Notes under the pieces: generated by a model
Databases searched by the model: none
Told to the model about the DNA's origin: nothing
Seen by the model: only the letters and a program-made list of their open reading frames with translations
Program-made: the position numbers and the translations under genes
Assembly (NCBI GenBank): GCA_965199855.1
Contig: OZ241326.1
Coordinates: 2,211,908 to 2,275,907 of the forward strand
Direction of reading: 5' to 3'
Length of the DNA stretch: 64,000 nt
Source: a bacterium
GTDB lineage: Bacteria > UBA8248
Shown here: positions 515 through 50,988 of the stretch, piece after piece
Layout: each line of letters starts with the position of its first letter
Position numbering within the stretch: position 1 is the stretch's first letter

Positions 515-4133
<3,619 letters not shown>

Positions 4134-4259
4134 TCGATATTTCGATTGGGTTGTTGTTCTTTGATACGCCGCTATAATCGGATCGAGCCGATCCTCCAGC
4201 TCGCTTCGGCTGACCAGAAACGCCTTGTTTTCATCGCAGGACCGGCGAAGATTGAAGCC

Positions 4260-7573: not shown

Positions 7574-8475
7574 GCGGCGGAATCCTGATCTACCGCATGG
7601 GGGCGTTCGGGGACACGCTCCTGCTCGCGCCGCTGCTCGGACGCCTGCGGGAGGCGCGCCCGGGCGTTCGCCTCACCCTGGCGGCGAACCCCGCATACGC
7701 CGCTCCCCTGCTCGACGCGGGGCTGGCGGAGGAGATTCTGGACGGGGGCGCGCCTCCCTTTCATCTTCTCTATGACGGGCGGCCATCGGAGAACGACGCG
7801 CTCGCCCGGCTCATCCGGCGGCATGACGCCTGCGTCTTCTACACCGCCGACCGCTCGGGAGAGCTGGCGAGGCGGCTGCGTTCATCGAGGCCGGAGAAAT
7901 GCCGCGTCCACCCCCCTTTCCCGCCGGAGGGGGAGAGCGTTCACGTCTGCGCGTGGATGACGCGGGCGTGGCCCGGCCTGAGCGCGTCCGCGCCTGAAAG
8001 CATGAAGCTGACGCCTTCGGAAAACAGCCTGTCTGAGGCGGACAACCTATTGAAAAAAAATGGCTTGCGACCTTCCCGCTTCTTCATCCTCCATCCCGGC
8101 GGAGGGGGCGAGAGAAAATGGCCGCCGCCCGACGTTCTCGCGGAGATGGGCCGCGCCCTCGCGCGCGAAACGGGGCATCAGCCGGTCGTGGCGGAAGGGC
8201 CGGCGGATTCGATCGCCAGCGAGAATTTCCAGAAGCTCCCGGGCGCGCCCCTGCCGGTCCTCAGGGAAACGCCGCCCGTCATCCTGGGCGCCCTGCTCTC
8301 GAGGTCGTCCGGGTATATCGGGGGCGATTCCGGCGTCTCCCATCTCGCCTCTCTCTACGCGCCGCGCGCCTCGATACTGTATGGCCCCCATTCCGACATG
8401 AGGGTCTGGCGACCGATAGGCTCCCGAACGCGCTGCCTGTCCTGGGAGGCGGAGCGGAGGAGCGCGTTCGGGTGA
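7570..8475 (+). CDS. Glycosyltransferase family 9 (LPS heptosyltransferase-like).
   Basis: 301 aa. N-terminal ILIYRMGAFGDTLL and C-terminal …GYIGGDSGVSHLA are GT9 (RfaF/WaaC-like) hallmarks. The TTG start overlaps the rsmA stop (TTGA). Confidence 0.7.
   Translation: MSGGILIYRMGAFGDTLLLAPLLGRLREARPGVRLTLAANPAYAAPLLDAGLAEEILDGGAPPFHLLYDGRPSENDALARLIRRHDACVFYTADRSGELARRLRSSRPEKCRVHPPFPPEGESVHVCAWMTRAWPGLSASAPESMKLTPSENSLSEADNLLKKNGLRPSRFFILHPGGGGERKWPPPDVLAEMGRALARETGHQPVVAEGPADSIASENFQKLPGAPLPVLRETPPVILGALLSRSSGYIGGDSGVSHLASLYAPRASILYGPHSDMRVWRPIGSRTRCLSWEAERRSAFG

Positions 8476-21921: not shown

Positions 21922-21925
<4 letters not shown>
21476..21925 (-). CDS. DUF3465-family secreted protein.
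   Basis: 149 aa. Signal peptide, then …[38 protein letters not shown]…[19 protein letters not shown]…[11 protein letters not shown], which matches DUF3465 conserved blocks from memory. Confidence 0.55.
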
Positions 21926-25173
<3,248 letters not shown>

Positions 25174-25279: not shown

Positions 25280-26371
25280 TCACTCCCCCACGCAGAAGCT
25301 GAAGAATTCGTCGAACAGCGCGCCCGCGTCATGCGGGCCGGGGCGGGCCTCGGGGTGATACTGCACGCTGAAGACTTTGGGGGCGTCCGAGCGAAGCCCC
25401 TCGCAGGTTCCGTCGTTCAGGGAGGAATGCGTGACGGCGACGCCCGCCGGCAGGCTTTCGGGGTCCACGGCGAAGGAGTGGTTCTGGGAGGTGATGGCCA
25501 CCTTCCGCGTGGCCGCGTCCCGGACGGGGTGGTTCGCCCCGTGGTGGCCGAACTTGAGCTTGTAGGTTCTGCCGCCCAGCGCCCGGGCGAGGATTTGATG
25601 CCCCAGGCAGATGCCCACGACGGGAACCCGGCCGATGATGCGCCGCGCGCTCTCGACGACGTAGCCGAGGGCGGCGGGGTCTCCCGGGCCGTTCGAGAGG
25701 AAAACGGCCGCGGGCCTCCTCGCCAGGACGCTGTCCGCCTCCTCGGAGGCCGGCACGACCTCCAGGTCGAACCTTCGGCTGAGCTCCCGGAAGATGTTGT
25801 CCTTCGCGCCCAGGTCGTAGGCCACGCAGAGCGGGCGGCCCCTTCTCTCGCCGTAGGCGCGCGCGGCGGCGCAGGTCACGTCCTTCACCAGGTCGCGCCC
25901 GTCCAGCCCGGGGCTCTCCCTGGCGCGCCTGACGAGGCCGTCCTCGTCCGGCTCCCGCGTGGAGAGCGCGGCGCGCAGGGCGCCCGCCTCCCGGATGTGG
26001 CGCGTGAGCGCGCGGGTGTCCACGCCCTCGATGCCGGGGACGCCCTCCCTCTTCAGGTAGGCGTCCAGGCTCTCGCTCGCCCGGAAGTTGCTGTGCCGCC
26101 GGCAGACCTCCTTCACGATGAACGCCTCGACCCAGACGCGGCGGGATTCCCCGTCGCCCGGAATGACGCCGTAGTTCCCGACGTGGGGATAGGTCATCAC
26201 CACCATCTGGCCGCGGTAGGAGGGATCGGTGAGCGTCTCCTGATAGCCCGTCATCGCCGTGTTGAAGACGAGCTCGCCCTCGGCGTCCGCCTCCGCCCCG
26301 AAGCCCGCGCCCCGGAAGACCCTGCCGTCCTCCAGCGCCAGGAGCGCCGGCCTGGCTTTTCGCCCCCTCAT
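25280..26371 (-). CDS. carA: Carbamoyl-phosphate synthase small subunit (glutamine amidotransferase).
   Basis: 363 aa from MRGRKARPALLALEDG… Contains CPSase_sm_chain plus a class I GATase with GICLGHQ catalytic Cys and HPE. The start overlaps pyrC's 3' end by 4 nt. Confidence 0.9.
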   Translation of the reverse strand: MRGRKARPALLALEDGRVFRGAGFGAEADAEGELVFNTAMTGYQETLTDPSYRGQMVVMTYPHVGNYGVIPGDGESRRVWVEAFIVKEVCRRHSNFRASESLDAYLKREGVPGIEGVDTRALTRHIREAGALRAALSTREPDEDGLVRRARESPGLDGRDLVKDVTCAAARAYGERRGRPLCVAYDLGAKDNIFRELSRRFDLEVVPASEEADSVLARRPAAVFLSNGPGDPAALGYVVESARRIIGRVPVVGICLGHQILARALGGRTYKLKFGHHGANHPVRDAATRKVAITSQNHSFAVDPESLPAGVAVTHSSLNDGTCEGLRSDAPKVFSVQYHPEARPGPHDAGALFDEFFSFCVGE

Positions 26372-27690
26372 GGCGCGAGCGCCCCCCGCGCGGAGATTCG
26401 GAGCTCCCCGTCGAGCCGGCTCATCCGCACCTCTCCGCCGACGACGGCGGCCGCGGCGCAGCCCCTGAGCCTCCAGCCCGCGAAGGGCGTGTTCCTGCCG
26501 CGGCTCTCGAAGGCGTCCGGCTCCACGACCACCTCGCGCGCGGGGTCGAGCAGGGTCGCGTCCCCGGGCGCGCCCTCCCGCAGGGTGCCGTAGGGCAGGC
26601 CCAGCGCCTCGCAGGGCCCGGTGGTGAACTTCGCTATCATCTCGGCGAGGGTGAGCGCGCCCGCGCCCACCAGCCTGTCCAGGGCGAGGGAGACGGCCGT
26701 CTCCAGCCCCACGACGCCGAACGGCACGGCGTCGAACTCCCGCTGGGTCTCCGCCTCGTAGTGCGGGGCGTGGTCGGAGGCGATGACGGAGATGGTCCCG
26801 TCCTTCAGGCCCTCCAGGAGCGCGCGCCTGTCCTCCTCGCCGCGGAGCGGAGGCGCCATCTTCGCGGAGGAGTCGAACCCGCGCGTCGCCTCGTCCGTGA
26901 GGGAGAAGTGGTGCGGCGTCGCCTCGCCCGTCACCCGGAGGCCGCGCGCCCGCGCCCGGCGAACCATGTCCACCGCGCCGGCGGAGGAGAGATGCAGGAG
27001 GTGGAGCTTGCCCCCCGTCAGCTCCGCCAGCCGGATGTCCCGATAGACGCAGATGTCCTCGCTCGCCGCCGGGTTTCCGGCCAGGCCGAGCATGGTGGAC
27101 ACCGCGCCCTCGTTCATCACCCGGCCGGCCGAAAGCGAGGCGTCCTCCGCGTGGTCGAGCACGCTCACCCCCAGCATTCCGGCGTATTCGAGCGCGGAGC
27201 GCATGAGCGCGGCCGTCCGCACCGGCACGCCGTCGTCGCTGAAGGCCACCGCGCCGGCCTCCACCTGCTCGGCCATCTCGCTCAGCGCCTCTCCCTCCAG
27301 CCCCACCGAAACCGAGCCGACGGGAAACACGCGGCACGCCCCCACCTCGCGCGCGCGCTTGAGGATGCGCTCGGTGATCGAACTCGTGTCGTTCACCGGG
27401 TCGGTGTTCGCCATGCACGCCACGCCGGTGAAGCCGCCGGCGGCCGCGGCGCGGGTGCCGCTTTCGATGTCCTCCTTGTATTCCTGCCCCGGCTCGCGGA
27501 AGTGGACGTGCATGTCGATGAAGCCGGGCGCCACGACGAGGCCCGCGGCGTCGAGCACCTCGTCCCCCTCGCGCGGGGCGATGCTCCTCTCCCTGCGCGC
27601 GACCCTGCCCTCCTCTATCAGGAGGTCGCTCTCCTCATCGACACCCTGGGAGGGATCGACGACGCGCCCGCCCTTAATGAGCAACGGCAT
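26368..27690 (-). CDS. pyrC: Dihydroorotase (multimeric DHOase type).
   Basis: 440 aa from MPLLIKGGRVVDPSQG… Metal-binding motifs (DMHVHFREPG…; ASDHAPH). The ORF track's upstream 119 codons are read-through. Confidence 0.85.
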   Translation of the reverse strand: MPLLIKGGRVVDPSQGVDEESDLLIEEGRVARRERSIAPREGDEVLDAAGLVVAPGFIDMHVHFREPGQEYKEDIESGTRAAAAGGFTGVACMANTDPVNDTSSITERILKRAREVGACRVFPVGSVSVGLEGEALSEMAEQVEAGAVAFSDDGVPVRTAALMRSALEYAGMLGVSVLDHAEDASLSAGRVMNEGAVSTMLGLAGNPAASEDICVYRDIRLAELTGGKLHLLHLSSAGAVDMVRRARARGLRVTGEATPHHFSLTDEATRGFDSSAKMAPPLRGEEDRRALLEGLKDGTISVIASDHAPHYEAETQREFDAVPFGVVGLETAVSLALDRLVGAGALTLAEMIAKFTTGPCEALGLPYGTLREGAPGDATLLDPAREVVVEPDAFESRGRNTPFAGWRLRGCAAAAVVGGEVRMSRLDGELRISARGALAP

Positions 27691-28693
27691 CCCGCGCCCC
27701 CCTTCGCGCCCTCTCCGGGGCGGCGTCCGCCTCCCCATCCGGCTCCGCCTCCTCCCGCTCCTCCTCCCTCCTGCCCGAGAGGAGATAGAGAATCGCCATG
27801 CGGCAGGCGACCCCGTATTCGACCTGCTCCAGAATGACGGAGAAGGGGCCGTCGGCCACGTCGGGAGCCATCTCCACCCCCCGGTTGATCGGCCCCGGGT
27901 GCATGATGAGCAGGTCCCGCCCGGCGTCCCGCAGCTTCTTCCTGGTGATCCCGTAGGAGCTGGCGTATTCGCGCTCGCTGGGAAAGGCGCCGCCGGCACC
28001 CCTCTCCAGCTGGATTCTGAGGGCGATGAGGACGTCCGCCCCGTCAATCGCCTCGTCGATCCGCGTCGTCGCGCGCGCGCCCAGGCATTCGACCTCGGCC
28101 GGCAGCATCGTGGAGGGGCCGCAGAAGGTGACCTCGGCGCCGAGCTTCAGGAGGCCGGCCGCGTTCGAGCGCGCCACGCGGCTGCGCGCGATGTCTCCCA
28201 CGATGGAGACGCGGAGCCCCTCGAACTTCTCCTTGTGCGCCCGGATGGTGTAGAGGTCGAGGAGCGCCTGGGTGGGATGCTCGTGGCAGCCGTCGCCCGC
28301 GTTCACGACGGCGCACCCGAGTTCGCGGCCCAGATAGGCGGGCGCGCCGGACGCCCAATGCCGCACGACGAGGACGTCCGTGGCCATCGCCTCGATGTTT
28401 CTCGCCGTGTCCCGCAGGGTCTCCCCCTTGCTCGCCGAGCTCGCGGCGACGGAGAGGTTGATGACGTCCGCCGAGAGGCGCTTGCCGGCGATCTCGAAGG
28501 AGGCGCGCGTCCTCGTGCTGTTCTCGAAGAACAGGTTGACGATCGTCTTGCCCCGCAGGGTGGGAACCTTCTTGACGGCGCGCTCGTTGATCTCGCGGAA
28601 GGAATCCGTCTGGTCGAGGAGAAACAATATCTCCCCGGGCTCGAGCTCCCGAATCGAGAGCAGATCCTTTCTCCGGTACGGCTCCGTTTTCAT
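27674..28693 (-). CDS. pyrB: Aspartate carbamoyltransferase catalytic subunit.
   Basis: 339 aa from MKTEPYRRKDLLSIREL… STRTR carbamoyl-phosphate site, HPTQ, and an HPGP…INRG Asp-binding half. Confidence 0.9.
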   Translation of the reverse strand: MKTEPYRRKDLLSIRELEPGEILFLLDQTDSFREINERAVKKVPTLRGKTIVNLFFENSTRTRASFEIAGKRLSADVINLSVAASSASKGETLRDTARNIEAMATDVLVVRHWASGAPAYLGRELGCAVVNAGDGCHEHPTQALLDLYTIRAHKEKFEGLRVSIVGDIARSRVARSNAAGLLKLGAEVTFCGPSTMLPAEVECLGARATTRIDEAIDGADVLIALRIQLERGAGGAFPSEREYASSYGITRKKLRDAGRDLLIMHPGPINRGVEMAPDVADGPFSVILEQVEYGVACRMAILYLLSGRREEEREEAEPDGEADAAPERARRGARDAVAH

Positions 28694-28715: not shown

Positions 28716-29252
28716 TCATTCCGGCTGCCGGAATCGCTTGAAGACGGCGTCCTCGCCGTCGGTCTCCTCAAGATGCACCCGCACCTCCTCGCCCCGCGCC
28801 GCCTCGACGTTCCTGCCGACGAAATCGGCGCGAATCGGCAGTTCGCGCCCCCCCCTGTCCACCAGAATCGCGAGCCGCGCCCTGCGGGGCCGGCCGAAGC
28901 TGACCAGCGCCGCCAGGGCGGCGCGCGCCGTCCGCCCCGTGCAGAGCACGTCGTCGACGAGAATCACGTCCTTCCCCTCGCAGGAGAAGGGAAGCTCCGT
29001 CTTCTTGAGCTTCGTCCGCGCGCCGCCGCCCCGGTTCAGGTCGTCCCGATAGAGGGTGACGTCGAGCGCGCCCACCGGCGGGCGCGAACCCGCCAGCGCG
29101 CGCAGCTCCCCGGCCAGCCTCTCGGCGAGCGGCGCGCCCCTCGTGCGGATGCCGATGAGCGCGAGCGCCGGCAGCTCCGCCGTCTGCTCGAGAATCTCGT
29201 GCGCGAGGCGCCTCAGCGTCCGCCTCAGCTGCCCGCCGTCGAGCTGCTTCAT
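28716..29252 (-). CDS. pyrR: Bifunctional pyrimidine operon regulator / uracil phosphoribosyltransferase PyrR.
   Basis: 178 aa from MKQLDGGQLRRTL… PRTase motif VILVDDVLCTGRTARAA; B. subtilis PyrR-like overall. It is the first gene of the pyrR-pyrB-pyrC-carA-carB operon. Confidence 0.85.
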   Translation of the reverse strand: MKQLDGGQLRRTLRRLAHEILEQTAELPALALIGIRTRGAPLAERLAGELRALAGSRPPVGALDVTLYRDDLNRGGGARTKLKKTELPFSCEGKDVILVDDVLCTGRTARAALAALVSFGRPRRARLAILVDRGGRELPIRADFVGRNVEAARGEEVRVHLEETDGEDAVFKRFRQPE

Positions 29253-29290
29253 CTTCGGGGCGAAGGCCGCCGGCCTGCCGGCCGCGCGCG

Positions 29291-29324
29291 AAAAAAAACG
29301 CCACGCCCCGGGGGGCATGGCGTT
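29291..29324 (-). terminator. Intrinsic terminator / attenuator hairpin in the pyrR 5' leader (about 40 nt upstream of the pyrR start).
   Basis: RNA-sense (minus strand) AACGCCAUGCCCCCCGGGGCGUGGCG followed by UUUUUUUU. It forms an ~10-bp GC-rich stem (one G-U pair) plus an 8-U tract. Confidence 0.65.
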
Positions 29325-29369
29325 CGGACGATGAGCGAAAAGACACCGGGCATCCGCGCTTCCTCCTTC

Positions 29370-29383
29370 GCCGCCTCACGGGA
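29370..29383 (-). promoter_or_regulatory. Candidate PyrR-binding loop (PyrR RNA element) in the pyr operon leader.
   Basis: RNA sense GUCCCGUGAGGCGG matches the PyrR binding-loop core consensus UCCNGNGAGGYU. It lies ~50 nt upstream of the attenuator hairpin, the arrangement of Bacillus-type pyr attenuation. Confidence 0.5.
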
Positions 29384-29487
29384 CGGCATTAAAGGGGAAT
29401 CCCACGCTGTTCTCGTTCGGCGGCGGGCGCGCCGAGACTATTTGGCCGAACCTAGCAGTATTCTCCGCCGGGGGCAAGCGGAATTCC

Positions 29488-40566: not shown

Positions 40567-40748
40567 CCCCGAAGCTCCCCGGAGAAGCGAGGCGCGCGCC
40601 GGAATCCCCGGCGAGGCCCGGCGCAATCCCGAATCGCCGGGACGCGGCGCCGCTCCGCCGGGCGCGTTGACACGCAATCGCCGCAGGGTGGATCATGGCG
40701 GGCGTCGAGCGCAACCATCATCCCAAACCAGCCTGCGGGAGCCGCGAG

Positions 40749-41921
40749 ATGAGCCTGCAAACCGAAGCCGCGCTTCAGTTCGACCTGGACGACACGCAAA
40801 AGATGCTTCGCCGGACGGTGCGGGAGCTCTCCGAGCGCCACATCGCCCCGCGCGCCGCCGAAATCGACGAGAACGAGGAATACCCCGAAGACATCTATCA
40901 GATGCAGAAGGAGCACGGCCTCCTCGGCATCTTCTTCCCCGAGGAATACGGCGGCGGCGGAATGGGCTTTCTGGGCGGCTGCGTCGCCATCGAGGAGATC
41001 GCGCGCTTCTGCTCGAACTCCCCGCTCTTCATCGTGCTCAACATGCTCTCGAGCCGCGTCATCGACCTGAGCGGCACGCCGGAGCAGAAGACGCATTATA
41101 TGACGGGCCTCGCCAGGGGCGAACTTCGGGGCTCCTACGCCCTCACGGAGCCCCACGCGGGCTCCGACGCCGGGAACATCCGCACGCGCGCCGTCCGGGA
41201 GGGCGAGGAGTGGGTCATCAACGGGACGAAATGCTTCTGCACGGGACCCGACAAGGCGGACTTCATCACCGTCGCCGCCAAGACCGACCCCGGCGCGGGC
41301 GCGCGGGGCATCACCTACTACGTCGTCCCCACGGACGCGCCCGGCTTCAGCATCGACAAGCACGAGCGCAAGATGGGGATGCGCGGCATCTCGACCTGCA
41401 TGCTGCGCTTCGACAGCGTGGCCGTGCCCCTCGAGAACCAGATCGGCGAGCTGAACCAGGGCTTCAGAACCGCGATGATCGGCTTCAACCAGATGCGGCC
41501 CGCCATCGGCGCGCGCGCGGTCGGCCTCGCCCAGGGGTGCCTCGACTACGCCGCGGGCTACGCGAAGGAGCGCGAGGCCTTCGGGAAGCCCATCGCCCGC
41601 CACCAGGCCGTCCAGTTCATGCTCGCCGACATGTTCATGGACATCGAGGCGTCGCGCCTGCTCGTCTATCGCGCCGCCTCGATGGTGGACGCCGGACAAA
41701 TCGGCAAGGAGAACGCCCGGTATTTCTCGACGGCCAAGACCTACGCGGCCGACATGGCGATGAAGTGCGCGATAGACGGCATCCAGGTGCTGGGCGGGGC
41801 GGGCTACATGAAGGATCACCCGCTCGAGCGCTTCATGCGCGACGCCAAGCAGATCCAGATCGTCGAGGGGACGAGCCAGATTCAGCGGATCATCATCGCC
41901 CGCAACCTGCTCGACCTCTAG
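40749..41921 (+). CDS. Acyl-CoA dehydrogenase (paralog 1).
   Basis: From MSLQTEAALQF… ACAD N-terminal, middle and C-terminal domains (…YALTEPHAGSD…GQKCFCTG…QIVEGTSQIQR…). Confidence 0.85.
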   Translation: MSLQTEAALQFDLDDTQKMLRRTVRELSERHIAPRAAEIDENEEYPEDIYQMQKEHGLLGIFFPEEYGGGGMGFLGGCVAIEEIARFCSNSPLFIVLNMLSSRVIDLSGTPEQKTHYMTGLARGELRGSYALTEPHAGSDAGNIRTRAVREGEEWVINGTKCFCTGPDKADFITVAAKTDPGAGARGITYYVVPTDAPGFSIDKHERKMGMRGISTCMLRFDSVAVPLENQIGELNQGFRTAMIGFNQMRPAIGARAVGLAQGCLDYAAGYAKEREAFGKPIARHQAVQFMLADMFMDIEASRLLVYRAASMVDAGQIGKENARYFSTAKTYAADMAMKCAIDGIQVLGGAGYMKDHPLERFMRDAKQIQIVEGTSQIQRIIIARNLLDL

Positions 41922-41933
41922 GAGCGCGCGGAG

Positions 41934-43103
41934 GTGGGGCCGGGGGCGGAGCCGCCCGCCGCGTTCGGGCTGAGCCGGGCGCAGCGAGCGCTGGGAGAGA
42001 GGGTCTATGCGCTGAGCCGCCGCCGCGTCGCGCCCCGCGCCGCCGACATCGACGAAAGCGGGGAATACCCCGAGGATATTTTCCAGCTCCTGAAGTCCCG
42101 CGGCCTCCTCGGCCTCTACGTCCCCGAAGAATACGGCGGGGCGGGCCTCGGCGTCCTGGAGACGTGCGTCGCCATCGAGCAGATGGCGCGCTTCTGCTCG
42201 AACTCTCCCCTTTTCTTCTCCGTCCACCTGCTCGCCACCCGCGCCGTCGCCATAGGCGGAACCGGGGCGCAGAAGAGCGTCTGGCTCCGCGGCGTAGCCC
42301 GGGGCGAGCTGCGCCCCGCCTTCTCGCTCACCGAGCCGCACGCGGGCTCCGACGCCGCGAACATATCGGCGCGCGCGGCGCGGGAGGGGGACTCGTGGGT
42401 CATCAACGGCCAGAAGTGCTACTGCACCGGCGCGAGCGTCGCCGACTTCCTCACCGTGGCGGCGAAGACCGAGGCCGGGGCGGGGGCGCGCGGCGTCTCC
42501 TTCTTCATCGTTCCCAAGGGCGAATTCCGGGTGGGCCGCCGCGAGAGGAAGATGGGGATGCGGGGAATCCCCACCTGCGAGGTGTTTTTGGAGAACGCCC
42601 ACGTCCCCCTCGAAAACATCATCGGCGATCGGGCGACGGGCTTCAGAACCGCCATGCTCGGCTTCAACCAGGCGCGGCCCGCCATCGGCGCGCGCGCGGT
42701 CGGCCTCGCCCAGGGGTGCCTCGACCACGCCGCGGGCTACGCCAAGGAGCGCGAGGCCTTCGGGAAGCCCATCGCCCGCCATCAGGCCGTCCAGTTCATG
42801 CTCGCCGACATGTTCATGGACGTCGAGGCGTCGCGCCTGCTCGTTTACCGCGCCGCCTCGATGGTGGATAATGGGCGCTATCAAAAGGAGGACGCGCATT
42901 TCATCTGCGCCGCGAAGTGCTTCGCGTCCGACGCGGCCATGAAGGCGGCCGTGGACGCGGTTCAGACCCTGGGCGGGGCGGGCTATACGAGGGATCACCC
43001 GCTCGAGCGGTTTATGAGAGACGCCAAGCAGCTGCAAATCATCGAGGGGACGAACCAGATTCAGCGCATGGCGATCGCCCGGAATCTGCTGGGCCTGAAC
43101 TGA
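41934..43103 (+). CDS. Acyl-CoA dehydrogenase (paralog 2, tandem duplicate).
   Basis: 389 aa. Long stretches identical to paralog 1 (RPAIGARAVGLAQGCLD…AAGYAKEREAFGKPIARHQAVQFMLADMFMD). Confidence 0.85.
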   Translation: MGPGAEPPAAFGLSRAQRALGERVYALSRRRVAPRAADIDESGEYPEDIFQLLKSRGLLGLYVPEEYGGAGLGVLETCVAIEQMARFCSNSPLFFSVHLLATRAVAIGGTGAQKSVWLRGVARGELRPAFSLTEPHAGSDAANISARAAREGDSWVINGQKCYCTGASVADFLTVAAKTEAGAGARGVSFFIVPKGEFRVGRRERKMGMRGIPTCEVFLENAHVPLENIIGDRATGFRTAMLGFNQARPAIGARAVGLAQGCLDHAAGYAKEREAFGKPIARHQAVQFMLADMFMDVEASRLLVYRAASMVDNGRYQKEDAHFICAAKCFASDAAMKAAVDAVQTLGGAGYTRDHPLERFMRDAKQLQIIEGTNQIQRMAIARNLLGLN

Positions 43104-43133
43104 CGCCTCGCTTCCCGCCGCCGGAGGTTACGG

Positions 43134-43754
43134 ATGAGCCGGACCATTGAAATTCTCACGCCCACCTCGTTCGTCCGCGCGGGCGATCATCCCCTGGCGG
43201 CGCGGCCGGGAGAGCTCGGCGGACTCAGAATCGGCTTTTTCCACAACAACAAGCCGAACGCCGACGCCCTCCTGGAGCGCATCGAGGAGCTCCTCGCGCG
43301 GGAGGACGAAACCCTCCGCTTCGTCCGCTGGGGAAAGCCGAACCCGACGCTGCCGGAGGCGCGCCTCGGCGAGTTCATCAAGCAGGTGGACGCGGCCGTC
43401 TGCGCGGTGGGCGACTGAGGCAGCTGCACGTCGTGGAGTATCCACGACGCGGTGGAGATGGAGAAAGCGGGGATTCCGACGGCCACGTTCTGCTCCAGCG
43501 AATTCTCCGCCCTGGGCGCGAACGAGCGGGTCGCCCTGGGGATGCCGGGCCTTCCGATAGTCGTCGTGCCGCACCCCGTGGGGGGGATTCCGCCCGAACG
43601 GGCGCGCGCCCTGGGGGACGCGGCGCTGGACGAGGTTCGGCGCGTCCTCACGGAGGACGCGGAATCGCTGCGAAGGGAATACCGCGAGCGCGCCTACGCC
43701 CCGCCCCGCCGGACGGTGCGCCACAAGGCGCTTTTCGCCCGGGGGTCGGCGTGA
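43134..43754 (+). CDS. Putative selenoprotein, UGSC-type (UxxC redox motif). The gene reads through an in-frame UGA at 43416..43418.
   Basis: ORFs 43134..43418 and 43452..43754 share one frame, separated only by TGA. Joined, the translation reads …AAVCAVGD-U-GSCTSWSIHDAVEMEKAGIPTATFCSSEF… The TGA is followed after 10 nt by the hairpin CGUCGUGG-AGUAU-CCACGACG. Confidence 0.7.
43428..43449 (+). ncRNA. SECIS-like mRNA hairpin (cis element), 11 nt downstream of the in-frame UGA.
   Basis: Perfect 8-bp stem cgtcgtgg/ccacgacg with a 5-nt loop AGUAU containing GU. Position and size match bacterial SECIS requirements. Confidence 0.6.
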
Positions 43755-43800
43755 GACGCCGGACGGACGGGAGCGCGCGCGGCGCAAGCGGGAGCGCGGC

Positions 43801-44892
43801 ATGAGCGATCCCTCCTCCGAAGCGCCTCCAGAAGCGGCGTCCCTCCCGAGCGAGCGGGTGAAGGTTCGGGACGCGCCCGAGGCGCTCGCGCGTCTCCTCG
43901 AGGCGAGGGGATGGGGCGACGGCCTGCCCGTCGTTCCCCCCACGCCCGGGCGCGTCGCCCGCATGGTGGAGGGGGCGGGGCTGGCCGCTGGGGAGGAAAT
44001 CGGCCGGATGCCGCCCCGCCAGGGAGTCGTCACGGTCGAGGCGCTCGCCGTCAACGCCGTGATGGCCGGATGCCTCCCGGCCTACATGCCCGTTCTCGTG
44101 GCGGCGGCGCGGGGGGCGCTCCAGCCGGAATTCTCGCTCCACGCGCTCCAGGCGACGACCCACCCGGTGGCGCCCCTGATCATCGTGAACGGCCCCGTCG
44201 CCGCGAGAATCGACATGAACGCGGCGTATGGATGCTTCGCCCCCGGAAACCGGGCGAACGCGACGATTGGCCGCGCGATGCGCCTGACGCTCCTGAACGT
44301 AGGCGGGGCGAGCCCGGGCGTTCTGGATCGCGCCACCCAGGGCTCGCCCGCGAAATACGCATTCTGCATCGCCGAGAACGAGGAGGAATCCCCCTGGGAG
44401 CCGCTGCACGTCGAGCGCGGCTTCGCGCCCGGGGAGAGCGCCGTCACGGTCGTGGGCTGCGAGGGGCCCCACAACGTCAACGATCACGTGAGCCACGCGG
44501 CGGAGGGCATTCTCGCCGCCGCCGCCGACACGATGTCCGTCATGGGCGGCAACAACTTCTATCTGAGGGGCGAGCCGCTCCTCGCGCTCGGCCCCGAGCA
44601 CGCGGCGACGATAGCGGGGGACGGGCTGTCGAAGGCGGACGTGAAGCGAAGGATTTTCGAGCTCGCCCGAAAGCCCGCGCGCCAGCTCCGGCGCGGCGCC
44701 ATGTGGGGGATGCAGACCTGGGGGGAGGAGATAGCGAGAAACGAGGGAGATGACGACTACGAGATTCCGCTTCTGGATCGGCCCGAAGACCTCATCGTCA
44801 TCGTGGCGGGCGGCGCCGGCAAGCACTCCTCCTACCTGCCGACGTTCGGCCCCACGCGCTCGGTGACCACCCGGGTCGATTCGCCGGCCTGA
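43801..44892 (+). CDS. Conserved hypothetical protein (363 aa), immediately downstream of the selenoprotein.
   Basis: Clean ORF with normal codon bias. No family recognised with confidence from sequence alone. Confidence 0.55.
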   Translation: MSDPSSEAPPEAASLPSERVKVRDAPEALARLLEARGWGDGLPVVPPTPGRVARMVEGAGLAAGEEIGRMPPRQGVVTVEALAVNAVMAGCLPAYMPVLVAAARGALQPEFSLHALQATTHPVAPLIIVNGPVAARIDMNAAYGCFAPGNRANATIGRAMRLTLLNVGGASPGVLDRATQGSPAKYAFCIAENEEESPWEPLHVERGFAPGESAVTVVGCEGPHNVNDHVSHAAEGILAAAADTMSVMGGNNFYLRGEPLLALGPEHAATIAGDGLSKADVKRRIFELARKPARQLRRGAMWGMQTWGEEIARNEGDDDYEIPLLDRPEDLIVIVAGGAGKHSSYLPTFGPTRSVTTRVDSPA

Positions 44893-45069: not shown

Positions 45070-45471
45070 ATGCCGAAGCAGCAGATCGACTCGGAGAAGG
45101 TGAGGCCGGTGGCCGCGTATTCCACGGGCTGGAAGGTGTCGAACGGGCATCTCGTCATGCTGGCGGGCCAGGTGGCGACCGACACGGAGGGCCGCACCGT
45201 CGGCGGAGACGACATCAAGGCCCAGGCGCGGCAGGTCTATGAGAACGTCAAGGCCGCGCTCGAGGCCGCCGGCGCCGGAATGGAGGACGTCATCCGCCTC
45301 ACCGTCTATCTCACGGATCGGGCGAATTTTCCGGGAAGCGCGGAGGTGCGGCAAGCCTACTTCAGCCCGCCCTATCCGGCGAGCACGCTCCTCATCGTGA
45401 GCGGACTGGCGAACCCGGAATGGCTCATCGAAATCGACGCCGTCGCCTTCGTGGAGGACGGGACGCCGTGA
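45070..45471 (+). CDS. RidA/YjgF/TdcF-family reactive-intermediate (enamine/imine) deaminase.
   Basis: 133 aa. …AAYSTGWKVSNGHLVMLAGQVA… and C-terminal …RLTVYLTD…PASTLLIVSGLANPEWLIEIDAVA match the YjgF signature. Confidence 0.85.
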   Translation: MPKQQIDSEKVRPVAAYSTGWKVSNGHLVMLAGQVATDTEGRTVGGDDIKAQARQVYENVKAALEAAGAGMEDVIRLTVYLTDRANFPGSAEVRQAYFSPPYPASTLLIVSGLANPEWLIEIDAVAFVEDGTP

Positions 45472-46325
45472 GAGGCGGCAGGGCGGTTTCCGAGACGCTC
45501 GTTCTCGTGAAGGGGGGCGGCGACCTCGCCACCGGCGCGGCGCACCGCCTGCGCCGCTCGGGCTTTCCCGTGATGATGACGGAAATCGAGCGTCCGACCA
45601 TGGTCCGCCGCGCCGTCTCCTTCGCCGAATGCCTCTACGCCGGCGAATGGCGGGTGGAGGGCGTGGCTTCCGCGAGGGCGGAGGGCGGCTCCCTGGAGGA
45701 GAAAATCGCCGGCGCGCGCGCGCTGATGGAGGCGGGCGCCGTTCCCGTGATGGTCGATCCGCGCGCCGAGGCGGTCGCCCGCGTCCGGCCCGCCGTCGTG
45801 ATCGACGCGATTCTCGCCAAGCGAAACCTCGGCACCCGCATCGAGGACGCCGAGGTGGTCATCGGCCTGGGGCCCGGCTTCACGGCGGGGGTCGATTGCC
45901 ACGCCGTCATCGAGACCGCCCGGGGGCACGACCTGGGGCGGGTGATACTCGAAGGGGCGGCGAAGCCGGACACGGGCGCGCCGGGCGCCATCGCGGGCTA
46001 CGCCGCCGAGCGGCTGCTGCGCGCCCCGCGCGCCGGCGCGTTCGCCTCCGCCGCCCGCATCGGGGACGCGGTGCGGGCGGGACAGGCCGTCGCCCGGGTG
46101 GACGGGGAGGAGGTGACGGCCCGCATCGACGGCGTCCTGCGCGGCCTGCTCAGGGACGGCATCGAGGTGAGCGCGGGCTTCAAGGTGGGCGACGTCGACC
46201 CCAGGGCCGAGCCTTCCCACTGCGTGACGATATCGGACAAGTCGCGCGCCGTCGGCGGCGGCGCGCTCGAGGCCGTCATGATGTTCCTGTTCGGCGTCTC
46301 CCCGGCCGCGGAGCGCGCGAATTGA
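45468..46325 (+). CDS. YqeB-family protein (selenium-dependent molybdenum hydroxylase system accessory protein).
   Basis: N-terminal LVLVKGGGDLATGAAHRL dinucleotide-fold motif and overall similarity to the YqeB (TIGR03309-type) family. A likely GTG start overlaps the ridA stop (GTGA). The ORF track start 45420 overlaps ridA. Confidence 0.6.
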   Translation: MRGGRAVSETLVLVKGGGDLATGAAHRLRRSGFPVMMTEIERPTMVRRAVSFAECLYAGEWRVEGVASARAEGGSLEEKIAGARALMEAGAVPVMVDPRAEAVARVRPAVVIDAILAKRNLGTRIEDAEVVIGLGPGFTAGVDCHAVIETARGHDLGRVILEGAAKPDTGAPGAIAGYAAERLLRAPRAGAFASAARIGDAVRAGQAVARVDGEEVTARIDGVLRGLLRDGIEVSAGFKVGDVDPRAEPSHCVTISDKSRAVGGGALEAVMMFLFGVSPAAERAN

Positions 46326-47206
46326 GTCCCGACATTCTGGCGGAAACGGTGGAAAGCGGCGCCTACCGCATCGGGCGCAGCGAAATCCCGATCAACCAGG
46401 CGAACGGCAACGCCTTCGTCCCCCCCGCGCAGTTCTATCTGGCGGCGGGCGACGCGCTCGAGCGCATCGCGTGGGCGGTGAGCCAGAACCTCCCCGTCCT
46501 GCTCGTCGGAGAGACCGGCGTCGGCAAGACGCTCTCGGTGCGCTACCTCGCCCACATGACGAACAACGGCTTCAGGCGCGTGAACCTCAACGGCATGACC
46601 ACGGTCGATGAATTCGTGGGCAAGCTGATGATCAACGAGCAGGGCACCTACTGGGTGAACGGCATCCTGATCGACGCGATGCAGTCGGGAGACTGGCTGC
46701 TCATCGACGAGATCAACGCCTGCCTGCCCGAAATCGCCTTCTGCCTCCACAGCCTGCTCGACGACGACCGCATGATCGTCCTCTCGGAGTATGACGGCCG
46801 CGTCGTCAAGCCCCATCCGGACTTCAGGCTCTTCGCCAGCATGAACCCCCACGAGGACAGGAGATACGGCGGCACGAAGCCCCTGAACGAGGCGCTTCTG
46901 GATCGCTTCCCCGTCACCGTGAGGATGGACTACCTGCCCTTCGAGGCGGAGGTCGAGGTCATCATGCGGCAGAGCGGGAACGGCGACGAGGAGCTCGTCC
47001 GGCGCATGGTGCGCGTGGGCCACGACGCGCGCGAGGCCATGAGGAACGAAAAGGTGTTCTGCACCTTCAGCACCCGGCGCCTGATTGACTGGGCGCGCAT
47101 GGCGGCGCGGTTCGACCCCATGGAGGCCGCCGTCTCGACCATCTTCAGCAAGGTCAACTCGTTCGACGCCAAGGTGCTCGAGGACATCGTGGACAACCAC
47201 TTCTAG
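46322..47206 (+). CDS. MoxR/CoxD-like AAA+ ATPase (AAA_5, CbbQ/NirQ/NorQ family).
   Basis: Walker A LLVGETGVGKT, Walker B LLIDEINA, and MoxR-type sensor regions. A probable TTG start overlaps the yqeB stop (TTGA). It lies in the long 45629..47206 ORF. Confidence 0.75.
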   Translation: MSPDILAETVESGAYRIGRSEIPINQANGNAFVPPAQFYLAAGDALERIAWAVSQNLPVLLVGETGVGKTLSVRYLAHMTNNGFRRVNLNGMTTVDEFVGKLMINEQGTYWVNGILIDAMQSGDWLLIDEINACLPEIAFCLHSLLDDDRMIVLSEYDGRVVKPHPDFRLFASMNPHEDRRYGGTKPLNEALLDRFPVTVRMDYLPFEAEVEVIMRQSGNGDEELVRRMVRVGHDAREAMRNEKVFCTFSTRRLIDWARMAARFDPMEAAVSTIFSKVNSFDAKVLEDIVDNHF

Positions 47207-47221
47207 CCGGGAGACGCAGGC

Positions 47222-48991
47222 ATGGAGCGCCGACGCGCCCGCCTCGAGACCCTCGCGCAGGTGACGGCGCGCGACTACGGCCTCGCCCTGCTGTTCGGCT
47301 CCCGGACGGAGACCGGGGACGACGCCGTCCTCGTCGAGGACCCGGAGCGGACCCTGGCGCGCCTGGGCGGCGGCCTCGACGACGAGCGCGTCCTGCGATA
47401 CCAGAAGGGCATGACGCTCATCGAGGTGGCCCGCAGGCTCCAGGGGACGCTTCGCTGGGCGGGCCGCGCGGCCCTCGCCAACCGGGAGACGCCGGGCCTT
47501 TTCCACCTCTGGCGCGCCCTCGAGGACGCCAGATGCGAGAACCGCCTCGCCGAGTCGCTGCCCGGCACGAGAAAGAATTTCCGCGCCTTCGTCCGTCCCG
47601 CGATCGAGGACGCCGAGCGAAGCCACGCGCGGGGGGAGCTCCCCCTGCTTCTCCAGATTCAATGGGGCATCTACCTCGCCGGCGTCGGCCAGACGCCCGG
47701 CGCCGCCTCCTCAAGGCCCGGGGATTTGCCCTCGGCCTGGTTCGATTCCGTCATCGCCCAGATTCTTCAGAGGCTCGTCCCGATCATCGACCGCGCCTGC
47801 GCGGCCAAAGAGCCGAAGACCGCCTTCGACTGCGCGAACGAAATCTACGACGCCGTGCGGCGCTTCCTCACCGAGGAGCAGCTCGCGCAGATGCGCGAGA
47901 GCGAGGAGCTCTCGGAGCTTCCGGATGAAATTCTGGAGAAAATCGAGAACCAGAAACTCCAGGGGGAGGAGTCCGAGTCGCCGGAGGCGCTCCACCCGGA
48001 GGCGCTCGACGAGGTGGACGCGGACGAGGGCGAGCAGGTCGAGCTCACGCCCGAGGAGCTCGCCGCCCTGGGCCGCTGGGCGTCTCCCTGGTTCGAGATG
48101 GAGGGCGGCGGGAAGGAAGTCCACCCGACGGCGGAGCATCCCGACGAGCGCACCATCGTCCTGCCCCCGGAGGGCAAGGCGGAGGAATACGCGGCGATCA
48201 TGGACGGCGCGGGCAGCCACATCAAGGTGCTGGCGTGGAAGCTCACGCAGATCATTCAGGAGAGAGCCTACGCCCGCTTCAGCGGCTCGCACCGCTCCGG
48301 CAAGCTGAACGTCCCGAAGCTCTGGAAGCAGCGCCTGGGCAAATTTCATCTTTTTCACCGCAAGGAGGAGCCCGAGAAGCTCGACGTCTGCTTCACCCTC
48401 CTCGTGGACGAGAGCGGCAGCATGAACCGCGAATCGAAATACGTAGCCGCCAGGGAGGCGACCGTGTTCTTCGCGGAAGTCCTCGACCGGCTGGACGTGC
48501 CCTTCGAGGTGATCGGCTACTCCACCGAGAGCTCGGAGGCGGCCATGGCGGCCGCGCTCGGCCACATCCCCGCCTTCAAGTTCAGGCACATCCGGCACTC
48601 CCCCCTTCAGCACCGCATCTACAAGGGCTTCGAGGACGCCTTCCCCCAGGTCAAGAACCGTCTCGTCAACATTTATCCGCGCTTCAACAACTGGGACGAG
48701 GAGCATCTGCTGTTCGCCTACCGAAGGCTCAGCCAGCGGCCCGAGGAGGAGAAGATCATCATCATCACCTCGGACGGCCAGCCCAACGGCGACGCGGCCC
48801 ACCTCGTGAGCGCGGTCGGCCGCCTCCAGGCGCTCGGCGTGCGGATCATCGGCGTCGGCGTGGTGGACCCCTTCGTCGAGCAGATCTACCCGAACCACAT
48901 CGTGGTGCAGGACCTCTCCCAGCTCTCCACGGAGCTGGTGAACATTCTGCGGCGCGAGCTGCTCGGGGGGGCGGAGGGCCGCCCTTGGTAG
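47222..48991 (+). CDS. von Willebrand factor A (VWA) domain protein, CoxE/NorD-like partner of the MoxR ATPase.
   Basis: 589 aa. C-terminal VWA domain with MIDAS motif (LLVDESGSM…T…SDG). Has the typical MoxR-VWA gene-pair architecture. Confidence 0.8.
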   Translation: MERRRARLETLAQVTARDYGLALLFGSRTETGDDAVLVEDPERTLARLGGGLDDERVLRYQKGMTLIEVARRLQGTLRWAGRAALANRETPGLFHLWRALEDARCENRLAESLPGTRKNFRAFVRPAIEDAERSHARGELPLLLQIQWGIYLAGVGQTPGAASSRPGDLPSAWFDSVIAQILQRLVPIIDRACAAKEPKTAFDCANEIYDAVRRFLTEEQLAQMRESEELSELPDEILEKIENQKLQGEESESPEALHPEALDEVDADEGEQVELTPEELAALGRWASPWFEMEGGGKEVHPTAEHPDERTIVLPPEGKAEEYAAIMDGAGSHIKVLAWKLTQIIQERAYARFSGSHRSGKLNVPKLWKQRLGKFHLFHRKEEPEKLDVCFTLLVDESGSMNRESKYVAAREATVFFAEVLDRLDVPFEVIGYSTESSEAAMAAALGHIPAFKFRHIRHSPLQHRIYKGFEDAFPQVKNRLVNIYPRFNNWDEEHLLFAYRRLSQRPEEEKIIIITSDGQPNGDAAHLVSAVGRLQALGVRIIGVGVVDPFVEQIYPNHIVVQDLSQLSTELVNILRRELLGGAEGRPW

Positions 48992-49011
48992 CGGAAGGCG
49001 GCCTCGCGCGG

Positions 49012-49812
49012 ATGATCGGCGCCCGAGCGGGGCGGATCGTCGCGGCGGTCGGGGCGGGGGGGAAAACGAGCCTGCTCACGGCGCTCGCCCGGGAGTTTCA
49101 CGCCCGAAGCGGCGCGCCCGCCCTCCTCACGACGACCACCAGAATTTTCGCGCCCCTGCCGGAGGAGGGGATTCCCCTCGCCCTGGGCGACGCCGCCGCC
49201 CTCTCGAGGAGGCTGCGCCCCTACATGAGAGCCTGCGGCGTCTCCTGGCTCGCCCGCGGACGCGAGGGCCGCGCGCCGGTTCCGGGCCGGGAGGGCGAGC
49301 GCCGCATGAAGCTGCGCGGCTTCGCGCCCTCCGAAATCGAGGGATTGCGTCTCGCGGAGGGCCTCACCCTCATCGAGGCGGACGGGGCGAGGCGCCTGCC
49401 CGTCAAGGCGCCCGGCGCGCGGGAGCCCGTCCTGCCCGAAGGCGTGGACGCCGTGCTGGGCGTCGTGGGGCTGGACGCCCTGGGCGCGCCCCTGGACGAG
49501 GCCCATGCGTTCCGCCCGGAGCTGCTCTCGCGGATATGCCGCCTGGACGCCGGCGCGGAGATCACGGCGGAGGCGATCGGGGCGCTGTGCGCGCACCCCG
49601 AGGGGCTGTTTCGCAAGGCGGACGGCGGCGCGCGCAGGTGGATCGTCCTCAACAAGGCCGATTTGGAAGCCTCGCTGGAAAAACGAAGAAAGATCGCCTA
49701 TACTATCCGGGAAATGGCGGGAAAGCCCCATGGGCCGGCGGACGGGGTTCTCCTGACCTCCTGCCTGAAGAACAGGCCGGAAGTTTTGCTGCGAATCGGG
49801 CCGGACGCCTGA
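49012..49812 (+). CDS. YqeC-family P-loop protein (probable selenium-dependent hydroxylase accessory protein).
   Basis: 266 aa from MIGARAGRIVAAVGAGGKTSLLTALA… with a P-loop GAGGKTS. Matches the YqeC (TIGR03172-type) family. Confidence 0.65.
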   Translation: MIGARAGRIVAAVGAGGKTSLLTALAREFHARSGAPALLTTTTRIFAPLPEEGIPLALGDAAALSRRLRPYMRACGVSWLARGREGRAPVPGREGERRMKLRGFAPSEIEGLRLAEGLTLIEADGARRLPVKAPGAREPVLPEGVDAVLGVVGLDALGAPLDEAHAFRPELLSRICRLDAGAEITAEAIGALCAHPEGLFRKADGGARRWIVLNKADLEASLEKRRKIAYTIREMAGKPHGPADGVLLTSCLKNRPEVLLRIGPDA

Positions 49813-49842
49813 GAGGAGGCGGCCCGCCTGCGCGGAGGAGAG

Positions 49843-50988
49843 ATGAGCGAGGACGTTTTCAGGGAAATGGCGAGGATGAAGGAGAAGGGGCAGGCGGGCG
49901 CGCTCGCCACCGTCGTGGCCCGCAAGGGCTCCGCGCCCATGAGCGGCGACGCGAAGATGCTCGTGCGCGAGGACGGCAGCGCCGAGGGCACCGTCGGGGG
50001 CGGCTGCCTGGAGGCCGAGGTCTGGGAGACCGCGATGAGCGTCCTCGAAACGGGCGCGCCCGAGAAGCTCTCCTTCGACCTCACCCAGAAGGAGGCGGAG
50101 GACAGCGGCCACATCTGCGGCGGCGTGGTGGAGATACTGGTGGAGCCGCTCCGGGCGTTTCCCCGGGAGCTGCTCGATGAGATCAACCGCGTGAAAAACC
50201 GGGGCGGAAGTGCCGCGCTGGCGACCATCGTCCAGCCGGGGGCGCTCGACATCCCGAAGCCCGAGGCCGGGAAAATGCTCTTCAGGCGCGACGGCAGCTC
50301 CGTGGGGGAAATTCCGCGCTATTCGGCGGAAGTCTGGGCGGAGAGCGCGCAGGTGATTCGCCAGGGCAGCCCCACCCTCCTGCACTTCAGCCAGGGCGCC
50401 GCGCGCGGCGGAGGAAAGAAGCCCGCGCCCGGCGAGGCGACCGAAATTTTCGTGGAGCCCATCTCCGGCCAGCCGCTCGTCTATATCTTCGGCGGCGGGC
50501 ACGTATCCTTCTGCGTCGCGCAGGCGGCCTGGCTCGCCGGCTTCCGGGTCGCCATCGTGGAGGACAGACCCTCCTTCGCCAACAAGGAGCGCTTCCCGAT
50601 GGCCGAGGCGTTCCACGTGGGCGATTTCCCGGAAGTTTTCAGGGAAATTCCGGTGGACGAGGCGGACTACCTGGCCATCATCACCCGGGGCCACGCGAAC
50701 GACGAGGTCGTCCTCGAATGGGCGATGAAGACGAAGGCGCGCTACATCGGGATGATCGGCTCGAAGAGCAAGGTGCTGCTCACCTACCGCCATCTTCAGG
50801 AGAAGGGCTTCGCGCGGAGCGAGCTCATCGAGCGCGTCCACGCGCCCATCGGCCTGGACATCGGCGCCGACACGCCGGGCGAGATCGGAATCGCCATCGC
50901 CGCCGAGTTCGTCCGCCATCGCCGCCGGGGCGAGGCGGAAAGCGAGGGCGCGGGCAGCAAGCGGGTGCGCCTGGGAAGAAAGGCGTAA
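49843..50988 (+). CDS. xdhC: XdhC/CoxI-family molybdenum hydroxylase maturation factor.
   Basis: 381 aa. XdhC_CoxI N-terminal domain (…ALATVVARKGSAPMSGDAKMLV…GTVGGGCLE…) plus a Rossmann-like XdhC_C (…VYIFGGGHVS…). Confidence 0.8.
   Translation: MSEDVFREMARMKEKGQAGALATVVARKGSAPMSGDAKMLVREDGSAEGTVGGGCLEAEVWETAMSVLETGAPEKLSFDLTQKEAEDSGHICGGVVEILVEPLRAFPRELLDEINRVKNRGGSAALATIVQPGALDIPKPEAGKMLFRRDGSSVGEIPRYSAEVWAESAQVIRQGSPTLLHFSQGAARGGGKKPAPGEATEIFVEPISGQPLVYIFGGGHVSFCVAQAAWLAGFRVAIVEDRPSFANKERFPMAEAFHVGDFPEVFREIPVDEADYLAIITRGHANDEVVLEWAMKTKARYIGMIGSKSKVLLTYRHLQEKGFARSELIERVHAPIGLDIGADTPGEIGIAIAAEFVRHRRRGEAESEGAGSKRVRLGRKA

Follow-up and report, generated by a model that had tools for sequence, protein, structure and literature searches.

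A UGSC-family gene with an in-frame UGA and a SECIS-type hairpin as a predicted selenoprotein gene in a bacterium of the lineage UBA8248

The "UGSC-containing protein" was first reported in 2007 (PMC1976440). A subsequent analysis of the Global Ocean Sampling (GOS) metagenomes counted 255 selenocysteine (Sec) forms and 21 Cys forms and ranked UGSC among the most abundant selenoprotein families (PMC2398784), and a 2026 review still places it among the selenoproteins whose function is largely uncharacterised (PMC13188914). Two other sets of selenoproteins invite comparison. GrdB, GrdF and PrdB (TIGR01917, TIGR01918, PF07355) resemble UGSC in that Sec opens their UxxC motif and in that a second subunit is encoded with them. 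The thioredoxin-fold selenoproteins with UxxC or CxxU motifs, which include thioredoxin (Trx)-, peroxiredoxin (Prx)- and SelW-like proteins, resemble it in having Sec-x-x-Cys at the N-terminus of a helix. The present analysis concerns a gene at positions 43134 to 43754 of a 64,000-nucleotide stretch of bacterial DNA (lineage UBA8248; assembly GCA_965199855.1, contig OZ241326.1, positions 2,211,908 to 2,275,907, forward strand), which as a whole is called the window below. A preliminary description, made from the DNA letters, had proposed that two small open reading frames (ORFs) at this site are a single gene split by an in-frame UGA and followed by a hairpin of the selenocysteine insertion sequence (SECIS) type. 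Our sequence comparisons support this proposal. The two ORFs are, with a probability of about 0.88, one UGSC-family selenoprotein gene in which the hairpin would act as the SECIS and the UGA would be read as Sec. The gene is a typical addition to a family that has been catalogued since 2007-2008 and is described by curated hidden Markov models (HMMs), and it represents no new type of element.

The frame that begins with the ATG at 43134 meets a TGA at 43416-43418, the coordinates of which had been given correctly in the preliminary description, and its next stop is the TGA at 43752-43754. The read-through product consists of 94 residues, Sec (U) and a further 111 residues, 206 in all, and the junction reads ...AVGD-U-GSC-TSWSIHD. 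With U replaced by Cys, the joined protein scored 136.4 bits against NCBIfam NF041046, "UGSC family (seleno)protein" (curated cut-off 125), and 161.8 bits against Pfam PF24696 (cut-off 25), so that the family assignment that had been suggested for the motif was borne out. Both matches span the UGA; the PF24696 match extends over HMM positions 1-171 of 172 and residues 6-173 in a single stretch. The GC content at third codon positions (GC3) is 0.87 in the half 5' of the UGA and 0.88 in the half 3' of it, which is the signature of a real gene in this window (GC 67.6%). The ratio of nonsynonymous to synonymous substitution rates (dN/dS) against L177, the closest diverged relative, is 0.19 upstream of the UGA and 0.14 downstream, and the low downstream value shows that purifying selection acts on this half in the read-through frame. 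Of the TGAs in the window, which were surveyed for coding-like flanks, only 43416-43418 has them both before and after it and is not closely followed by a new start codon, and no further selenoprotein genes were found in the 64 kb window.

All nine independent assemblies of this locus have the TGA. In all 11 public copies with listed gene calls the gene is split into ORFs of 94 and 98 amino acids, as had been expected of standard ORF callers, and the gene calls are again 94 and 98 in L176 (ERZ25070167 ctg394336), a tenth, near-identical copy of the locus. The genes that surround it are bacterial (Mfd, RodZ, LepA, SurA and signal peptidase), and the nearest named relatives of the source genome, which itself was assembled from a metagenome, are metagenome-assembled genomes of Nitrospinota. 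An alternative genetic code in which UGA would stand for Trp or Gly was rejected because TGA is the ordinary stop of many other genes in the window.

Homologues were collected as two samples. The Cys-form sample consists of 46 genome loci found with a Cys-containing pattern, and therefore holds Cys forms only. The Sec-form sample was obtained from metagenome contigs with a degenerate DNA pattern for G-D-TGA-G-S-C-T-S-W, in which the codons of the stem and loop (Thr ACG, Ser TCG and the AGU at the seventh position, x7) were not imposed; it holds at least 120 loci, and the counts of Sec forms given below are counts among the matches listed. Nearly all of these Sec-form matches lie in long ORFs that have the TGA in frame. 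The preliminary description had recommended a search for CGSC homologues, and these were found in haloarchaea, Sphingomonadales, Actinomycetota and others. In the alignments the first Cys of CGSC falls exactly at the UGA position, and C95, G96, S97 and C98 are invariant. The preliminary description had also named outcomes that would speak against a selenoprotein, among them homologues that end at the UGA and a hairpin at odds with bacterial SECIS models; the homologues do not end there, and the hairpin agrees with the published model, as described next. The closest long Cys forms (P0001, P0003-P0008) have a conserved C-terminal Cys-Pro-Leu/Ile tail, which may serve as an additional site of redox chemistry or modification; the Sec form in the window does not have this tail and ends in ...ALFARGSA.

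The stem of the hairpin is formed by CGUCGUGG (43429-43436) paired with CCACGACG (43442-43449), a perfect 8 bp with the loop AGUAU, and it begins with the 11th nucleotide after the UGA. Sequence and folding thus agree with the stem, loop and spacing that had been read from the DNA. Folding adds an A-U pair, which results in 9 bp and a GUA loop, with a free energy (dG) of -14.6 kcal/mol (z = -4.7); 0 of 200 shuffled sequences folded as well. The bacterial SECIS (bSECIS) consensus model of PMC13188914 has four criteria, and the hairpin agrees with all of them. The model calls for a loop of 3-9 nt on an upper stem of 4-16 bp, and here there are 8 bp with 5 nt or 9 bp with 3 nt. It places a G within the first two nucleotides of the loop, usually as N1-G-[G/U]-N-N2, and here the loop is A-G-U-A-U, in which A and U are pairable. 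The distance from the UGA to the apical loop, 16-37 nt in the model, is 18-19 nt, and the minimum free energy (MFE), which should be no higher than -7.5 kcal/mol, is the -14.6 kcal/mol given above. The claim that the hairpin sits where a bacterial SECIS is expected is upheld by these values and by its conservation specifically in Sec-form genes. Like the elements of the bSECISearch or E. coli fdhF type, the hairpin is located within the coding sequence, a short distance 3' of the UGA, with a stem of 8-9 bp, a loop (A-GUA-U) that fits N1-G-[G/U]-N-N2 and a spacing of 18-19 nt. It differs from them in that its sequence is family-specific, with no match in Rfam, and in that its binding by SelB is a prediction.

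At the Sec-form loci the hairpin occurs in the same register, with the consensus ACGUCGUGG-AGURU-CCACGAC. Among 110 distinct Sec-form sequences, the loop G and U are each conserved in at least 90%, and 86.5% of the pair cells were paired, versus 19-59% when the 3' arm was slid. The same 110 sequences showed 52 double-change cells, versus 8.5 in shuffled alignments, and none of 500 shuffles reached the observed value. A covariance model (R1) was built from 64 other Sec-form loci, with the window left out. This model found window positions 43426-43453 at 44.8 bits (E 2.6e-10), and the next best site in the 64 kb scored 15 bits. On the other Sec-form relatives L177 and L178 it gave 41-45 bits, and on the homologous Cys-form sites at most 30.5 bits. 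In L177, positions 7671-7698 correspond to window positions 43426-43453 and carry two synonymous changes, Ser TCG to TCA and His CAC to CAT, which together turn one G-C pair of the SECIS-type stem into A-U.

Since the hairpin lies within codons, coding constraint was controlled for, in what is the decisive test, by comparing only genes that encode the same T-S-W-x-x-H-D peptide (78 Sec forms and 11 Cys forms). The 7-bp core of the stem was kept in 76 of the 78 Sec forms versus 1 of the 11 Cys forms, and the mean dG of the hairpin was -12.5 kcal/mol in the Sec forms versus -6.1 kcal/mol in the Cys forms. Codon use in the Sec forms is near-fixed, with ACG for Thr in 73 of 78, TCG for Ser in 77 of 78, and AGU at x7, the codon that supplies the GU of the loop, in 72 of 78. 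The Sec forms vary freely in the codon for the preceding Ser, that of GSC. In clades with other peptides at this site (TTWCSHV, TWWGARR), the hairpin is retained by compensatory change, for example as GACGUGG/CCACGUC. These comparisons indicate that Sec forms preserve the structure, with covariation, and that in Cys forms it is relaxed. In summary of its relation to the UGSC family as described by NF041046 and PF24696, the window gene agrees in both curated scores, in the invariant U-G-S-C position, in a hairpin at the same position that is nearly the family consensus, and in a partner gene downstream (compare the UGSC/Unknown_1 fusions of Zhang & Gladyshev 2008). It differs in the missing Cys-Pro-Leu/Ile tail and in a lineage-specific neighbourhood with YqeB and YqeC, and in nothing essential. 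The features of the locus are given in Table 1.

Table 1. Positions of the predicted selenoprotein gene, its signals and the co-oriented genes around it (numbering of the window).
Feature	Position	Strand	Evidence or remark
Two tandem acyl-CoA dehydrogenase genes, directly upstream of UGSC	40695-43103	+	Pfam Acyl-CoA_dh_N/M/1
Shine-Dalgarno-like GGAGG, 6 nt 5' of the UGSC-gene ATG	43123-43127	+	sequence inspection
UGSC-family selenoprotein gene (predicted), 206 residues (U95-G-S-C98)	43134-43754	+	NF041046, PF24696, GC3, dN/dS
In-frame UGA, predicted Sec95	43416-43418	+	aligned with the first Cys of the invariant CGSC in Cys forms
Bacterial SECIS-type hairpin	43429-43449	+	stem 43429-43436 / 43442-43449; A43437-U43441 closing pair; apical GUA 43438-43440
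Ribosome-binding site GGGAG of the partner gene	43790-43794	+	
Partner gene (conserved; 363 aa), the domain named "Unknown_1" in Zhang & Gladyshev 2008	43801-44892	+	UGSC linkage
RidA	45070-45471	+	
YqeB, marker of the selenium-dependent molybdenum hydroxylase trait	45468-46325	+	TIGR03309, 347.6 bits (cut-off 220)
MoxR/CbbQ-like AAA ATPase	46322-47206	+	
CobT_C/VWA protein	47222-48991	+	
YqeC, second selenium-cofactor trait marker	49012-49812	+	TIGR03172, 165 bits (cut-off 73)
XdhC-family factor	49843-50988	+	

Several points weigh against decoding of this UGA as Sec. Genes for selA, selB, selD and tRNA-Sec were not found within the 64 kb window, nor were any tRNA genes; the search covered that window, and the Sec-decoding machinery is assumed for this organism. 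The evidence for this reading is at the level of sequence. In a chance control, 4.2% of all TGA triplets in the window were followed by a hairpin with 8 bp or more whose geometry loosely suits a SECIS. Because of this rate the hairpin is by itself weak, mildly significant evidence, and its significance comes from the family comparison. No SECIS family of Rfam was matched, either in the whole window at the gathering threshold or in 43380-43520 at E <= 10, a null result that is uninformative because the bacterial SECIS models in Rfam are family-specific. On the other side, the presence of YqeB and YqeC 1.7-6 kb downstream of the UGSC gene indirectly indicates selenium use; these proteins are predicted to take part in selenium-cofactor use and are a reliable marker of that trait only when they co-occur with SelD (PMC9312934). 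Were the TGA a real stop, the locus would contain either a split gene with polypeptides of 94 and about 98 amino acids or a pseudogene that arose through a Cys-to-stop mutation or a sequencing error. Gene callers do divide every public copy with listed calls, an ATG is available at 43458, 39 nt after the TGA, and the window yielded none of the Sec machinery. However, an identical TGA in nine independent assemblies, its place at the Cys position in at least 120 diverged loci, the dN/dS of 0.14 in the same frame downstream, the Pfam domain that runs uninterrupted across it and a hairpin conserved only in TGA forms make a real stop extremely improbable. It is likewise very improbable that the hairpin is a by-product of a T-S-W-x-x-H-D peptide with self-complementary codons. 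The codons ACG-TCG-TGG and CAC-GAC have some complementarity of their own, the hairpin model gives some Cys-form loci up to 30.5 bits, and the chance rate among window TGAs points the same way. Yet Cys forms with this peptide encode it by different synonymous codons, and in them the stem is lost (core in 1 of 11 versus 76 of 78; dG -6.1 versus -12.5 kcal/mol), the TTWCSHV and TWWGARR clades keep it through compensatory changes, and the closest relative, L177, shows a compensatory synonymous pair. A selenoprotein gene with its own SECIS is therefore the reading that is used below.

The partner gene that follows has a homologue adjacent to or fused with UGSC in 45 of the 46 Cys-form loci and in 92 of 117 Sec-form loci, and most of the loci that have none are those where the downstream sequence is missing. 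The linkage spans Bacteria and Archaea. Fusion was seen in 24 of 45 and 26 of 66 loci with enough downstream sequence, and a UGSC/Unknown_1 fusion had been mentioned in passing in 2008 (PMC2398784). Profile searches with the partner protein gave no Pfam or NCBIfam match, and no sequence or fold homologue was found in the PDB. The family is large: it comprises at least 5551 clusters at 50% identity (E <= 0.001), and the 90% database gave over 7900 hits. Among the residues that are invariant in it are C91, H121, C189, H224, D228 and H267. The AlphaFold2 (AF2) model of the partner is confident, with a predicted local distance difference test (pLDDT) score of 90, and its sub-domains are faintly like RidA/chorismate-mutase units. 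In the partner-family proteins P0261, P0311, P0321, P0330 and P0384, of about 700-740 aa, the query was matched in two to three stretches, which suggests a tandem duplication of the domain. The spacer between the UGSC gene and the partner gene (window 43754-43801) is 21 nt longer than in near-identical metagenome contigs (L049 10621-10647).

All the genes of Table 1 are co-oriented, in the order acd, acd, UGSC, partner, RidA, YqeB, MoxR-like AAA, VWA, YqeC, XdhC, and the stop and start codons overlap at the RidA/YqeB and YqeB/MoxR junctions. The acyl-CoA dehydrogenase pair is probably in the same operon as UGSC. Positions 45070-50988 (+) form a selenium-dependent molybdenum hydroxylase maturation set directly 3' of the selenoprotein pair, and no structural gene of a molybdenum hydroxylase was seen within the window. 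The gene order is kept in a relative with 83% identity, and the context is different in a relative with 62% identity. YqeB, YqeC, RidA and XdhC were found near none of 163 other UGSC loci among the matches listed. Because of these last two results, the neighbourhood with YqeB and YqeC is a local arrangement and not a property of the family. Recurrent neighbours were surveyed at 89 UGSC loci of at least 5 kb each. Enoyl-CoA hydratase was the most frequent (33 of 89), followed by short-chain dehydrogenase/reductase (SDR; 18), family III CoA-transferase (16), acyl-CoA ligase (15), GntR/FCD regulator (15), acyl-CoA dehydrogenase (14) and Amidohydro_2 (12).

For the fold of the UGSC protein, the AlphaFold model of P0007, a Cys homologue with 42% identity, was used (pLDDT 92.3). 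It is a five-strand parallel beta-alpha domain, flavodoxin/Rossmann-like, in which the helix following strand 3 has CGSC as its N-terminal cap. A search of PDB sequences with the UGSC protein gave nothing credible. The Trx-like fold suggested in 2008 (PMC2398784) is not supported by this model because the predicted domain is flavodoxin-like. The UGSC protein would thus stand outside the thioredoxin-fold selenoproteins, from which it differs in this predicted fold and in its obligate partner gene. A weak similarity to GrdB was found, in which UGSC residues 84-176, Sec included, match positions 336-416 of TIGR01917 (E 1.3e-4). The same match occurred in 10 of 27 UGSC family members, with a best E of 3.7e-5, all far below the cut-off. 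With TIGR01918 the score was 15 bits (cut-off 65), PF07355 had no match to the window protein at E <= 0.01, and the window protein falls outside selenoprotein B as those HMMs define it. GrdB has UxxCxxC, and the window protein, with U-G-S-C-T-S-W, lacks the third Cys. The GrdB system includes the pyruvoyl proproteins GrdE and PrdA, to which the UGSC partner, having no Pfam match, shows no detectable similarity. The context of GrdB is Stickland fermentation and that of UGSC is acyl-CoA metabolism. Two points count against reading too much into these likenesses: the fold model is that of the homologue P0007 and not of the window protein, and the 21 bits scored with TIGR01917, against a cut-off of 602, represent a region-level match and not a residue-by-residue alignment of Sec on Sec.

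As a mechanism, the hairpin at 43429-43449, acting as the SECIS, would recruit SelB-GTP-Sec-tRNA(Sec), as in the standard bacterial pathway, and the UGA at 43416-43418 would then be decoded as Sec instead of as a stop. Sec95 and Cys98 would form a redox-active selenenylsulfide couple. This couple may serve a partner subunit that catalyses the reaction or binds the substrate, which would be reduced. We tentatively propose that UGSC and its partner could be a two-part selenium-dependent reductase of this kind, in which the partner binds the substrate and Sec95 attacks it or transfers electrons. The genes around the pair, which encode acyl-CoA dehydrogenase, enoyl-CoA hydratase, CoA-transferase and acyl-CoA ligase, make an organic acid or acyl-CoA intermediate the probable substrate.

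Two other accounts of the function were considered. In the proposal of 2008 the selenoprotein would act alone as a general Trx-like thiol-disulfide oxidoreductase, with the 363-aa neighbour unrelated to it. This would suit a UxxC motif, which is typical of thiol oxidoreductases, but it is unlikely given a partner that is adjacent or fused at nearly all Cys-form and most Sec-form loci (45 of 46 and 92 of 117) across Bacteria and Archaea. Alternatively, the UGSC-partner pair could serve selenium trafficking for the selenium-molybdenum cofactor system of YqeB and YqeC in this lineage, and not organic acid catabolism. The run of co-oriented genes from UGSC through partner, RidA, YqeB, MoxR-like AAA, VWA and YqeC to XdhC, with its two overlapping junctions and its order retained in the 83%-identical relative, is what such a role would lead one to expect. 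It is nevertheless quite improbable, as the 62%-identical relative has a different context, none of the 163 other loci has YqeB, YqeC, XdhC or RidA nearby, and the recurrent neighbours elsewhere are acyl-CoA enzymes. The two-part reductase is therefore preferred here. A broader version of it, which we regard as doubtful, would make UGSC and its partner an uncharacterised, widespread two-component Se- or Cys-dependent reductase that descends distantly from GrdB/PrdB, acts on an organic acid or acyl-CoA substrate in aerobic and anaerobic Bacteria and Archaea, and is here co-transcribed with YqeB and YqeC.

Two further observations were made elsewhere in the window. A PyrR binding site at 29291-29399 (-) matched Rfam RF00515 with 56.3 bits (gathering threshold 54). 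It lies upstream of a phosphoribosyltransferase-type gene at 28716-29318, which is probably pyrR, and near carB (21922-25173) and an amidohydrolase (26368-28047), and it looks like an ordinary pyrimidine operon leader. A type I restriction-modification system occupies 2841-6392 (-), in which the specificity subunit is encoded at 2841-4133 and the N6-methylase, which has an HSDR_N domain, at 4260-6392. The GC3 of the N6-methylase gene (0.71) is lower than that of its neighbours, which suggests that this gene was horizontally acquired.

The main practical value of these results is the correction of a systematic mis-annotation. The gene is miscalled as two hypothetical ORFs in the public copies with listed calls, and annotation should join these as a single selenoprotein gene. 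Few selenoprotein families are as abundant in aquatic metagenomes as UGSC, and the locus offers modest leads to the function of this uncharacterised family. These are an obligate partner from a large family (at least 5,500 clusters at 50% identity) that neither Pfam nor NCBIfam models, recurrent acyl-CoA neighbours, and a predicted flavodoxin-like fold with weak similarity to GrdB.
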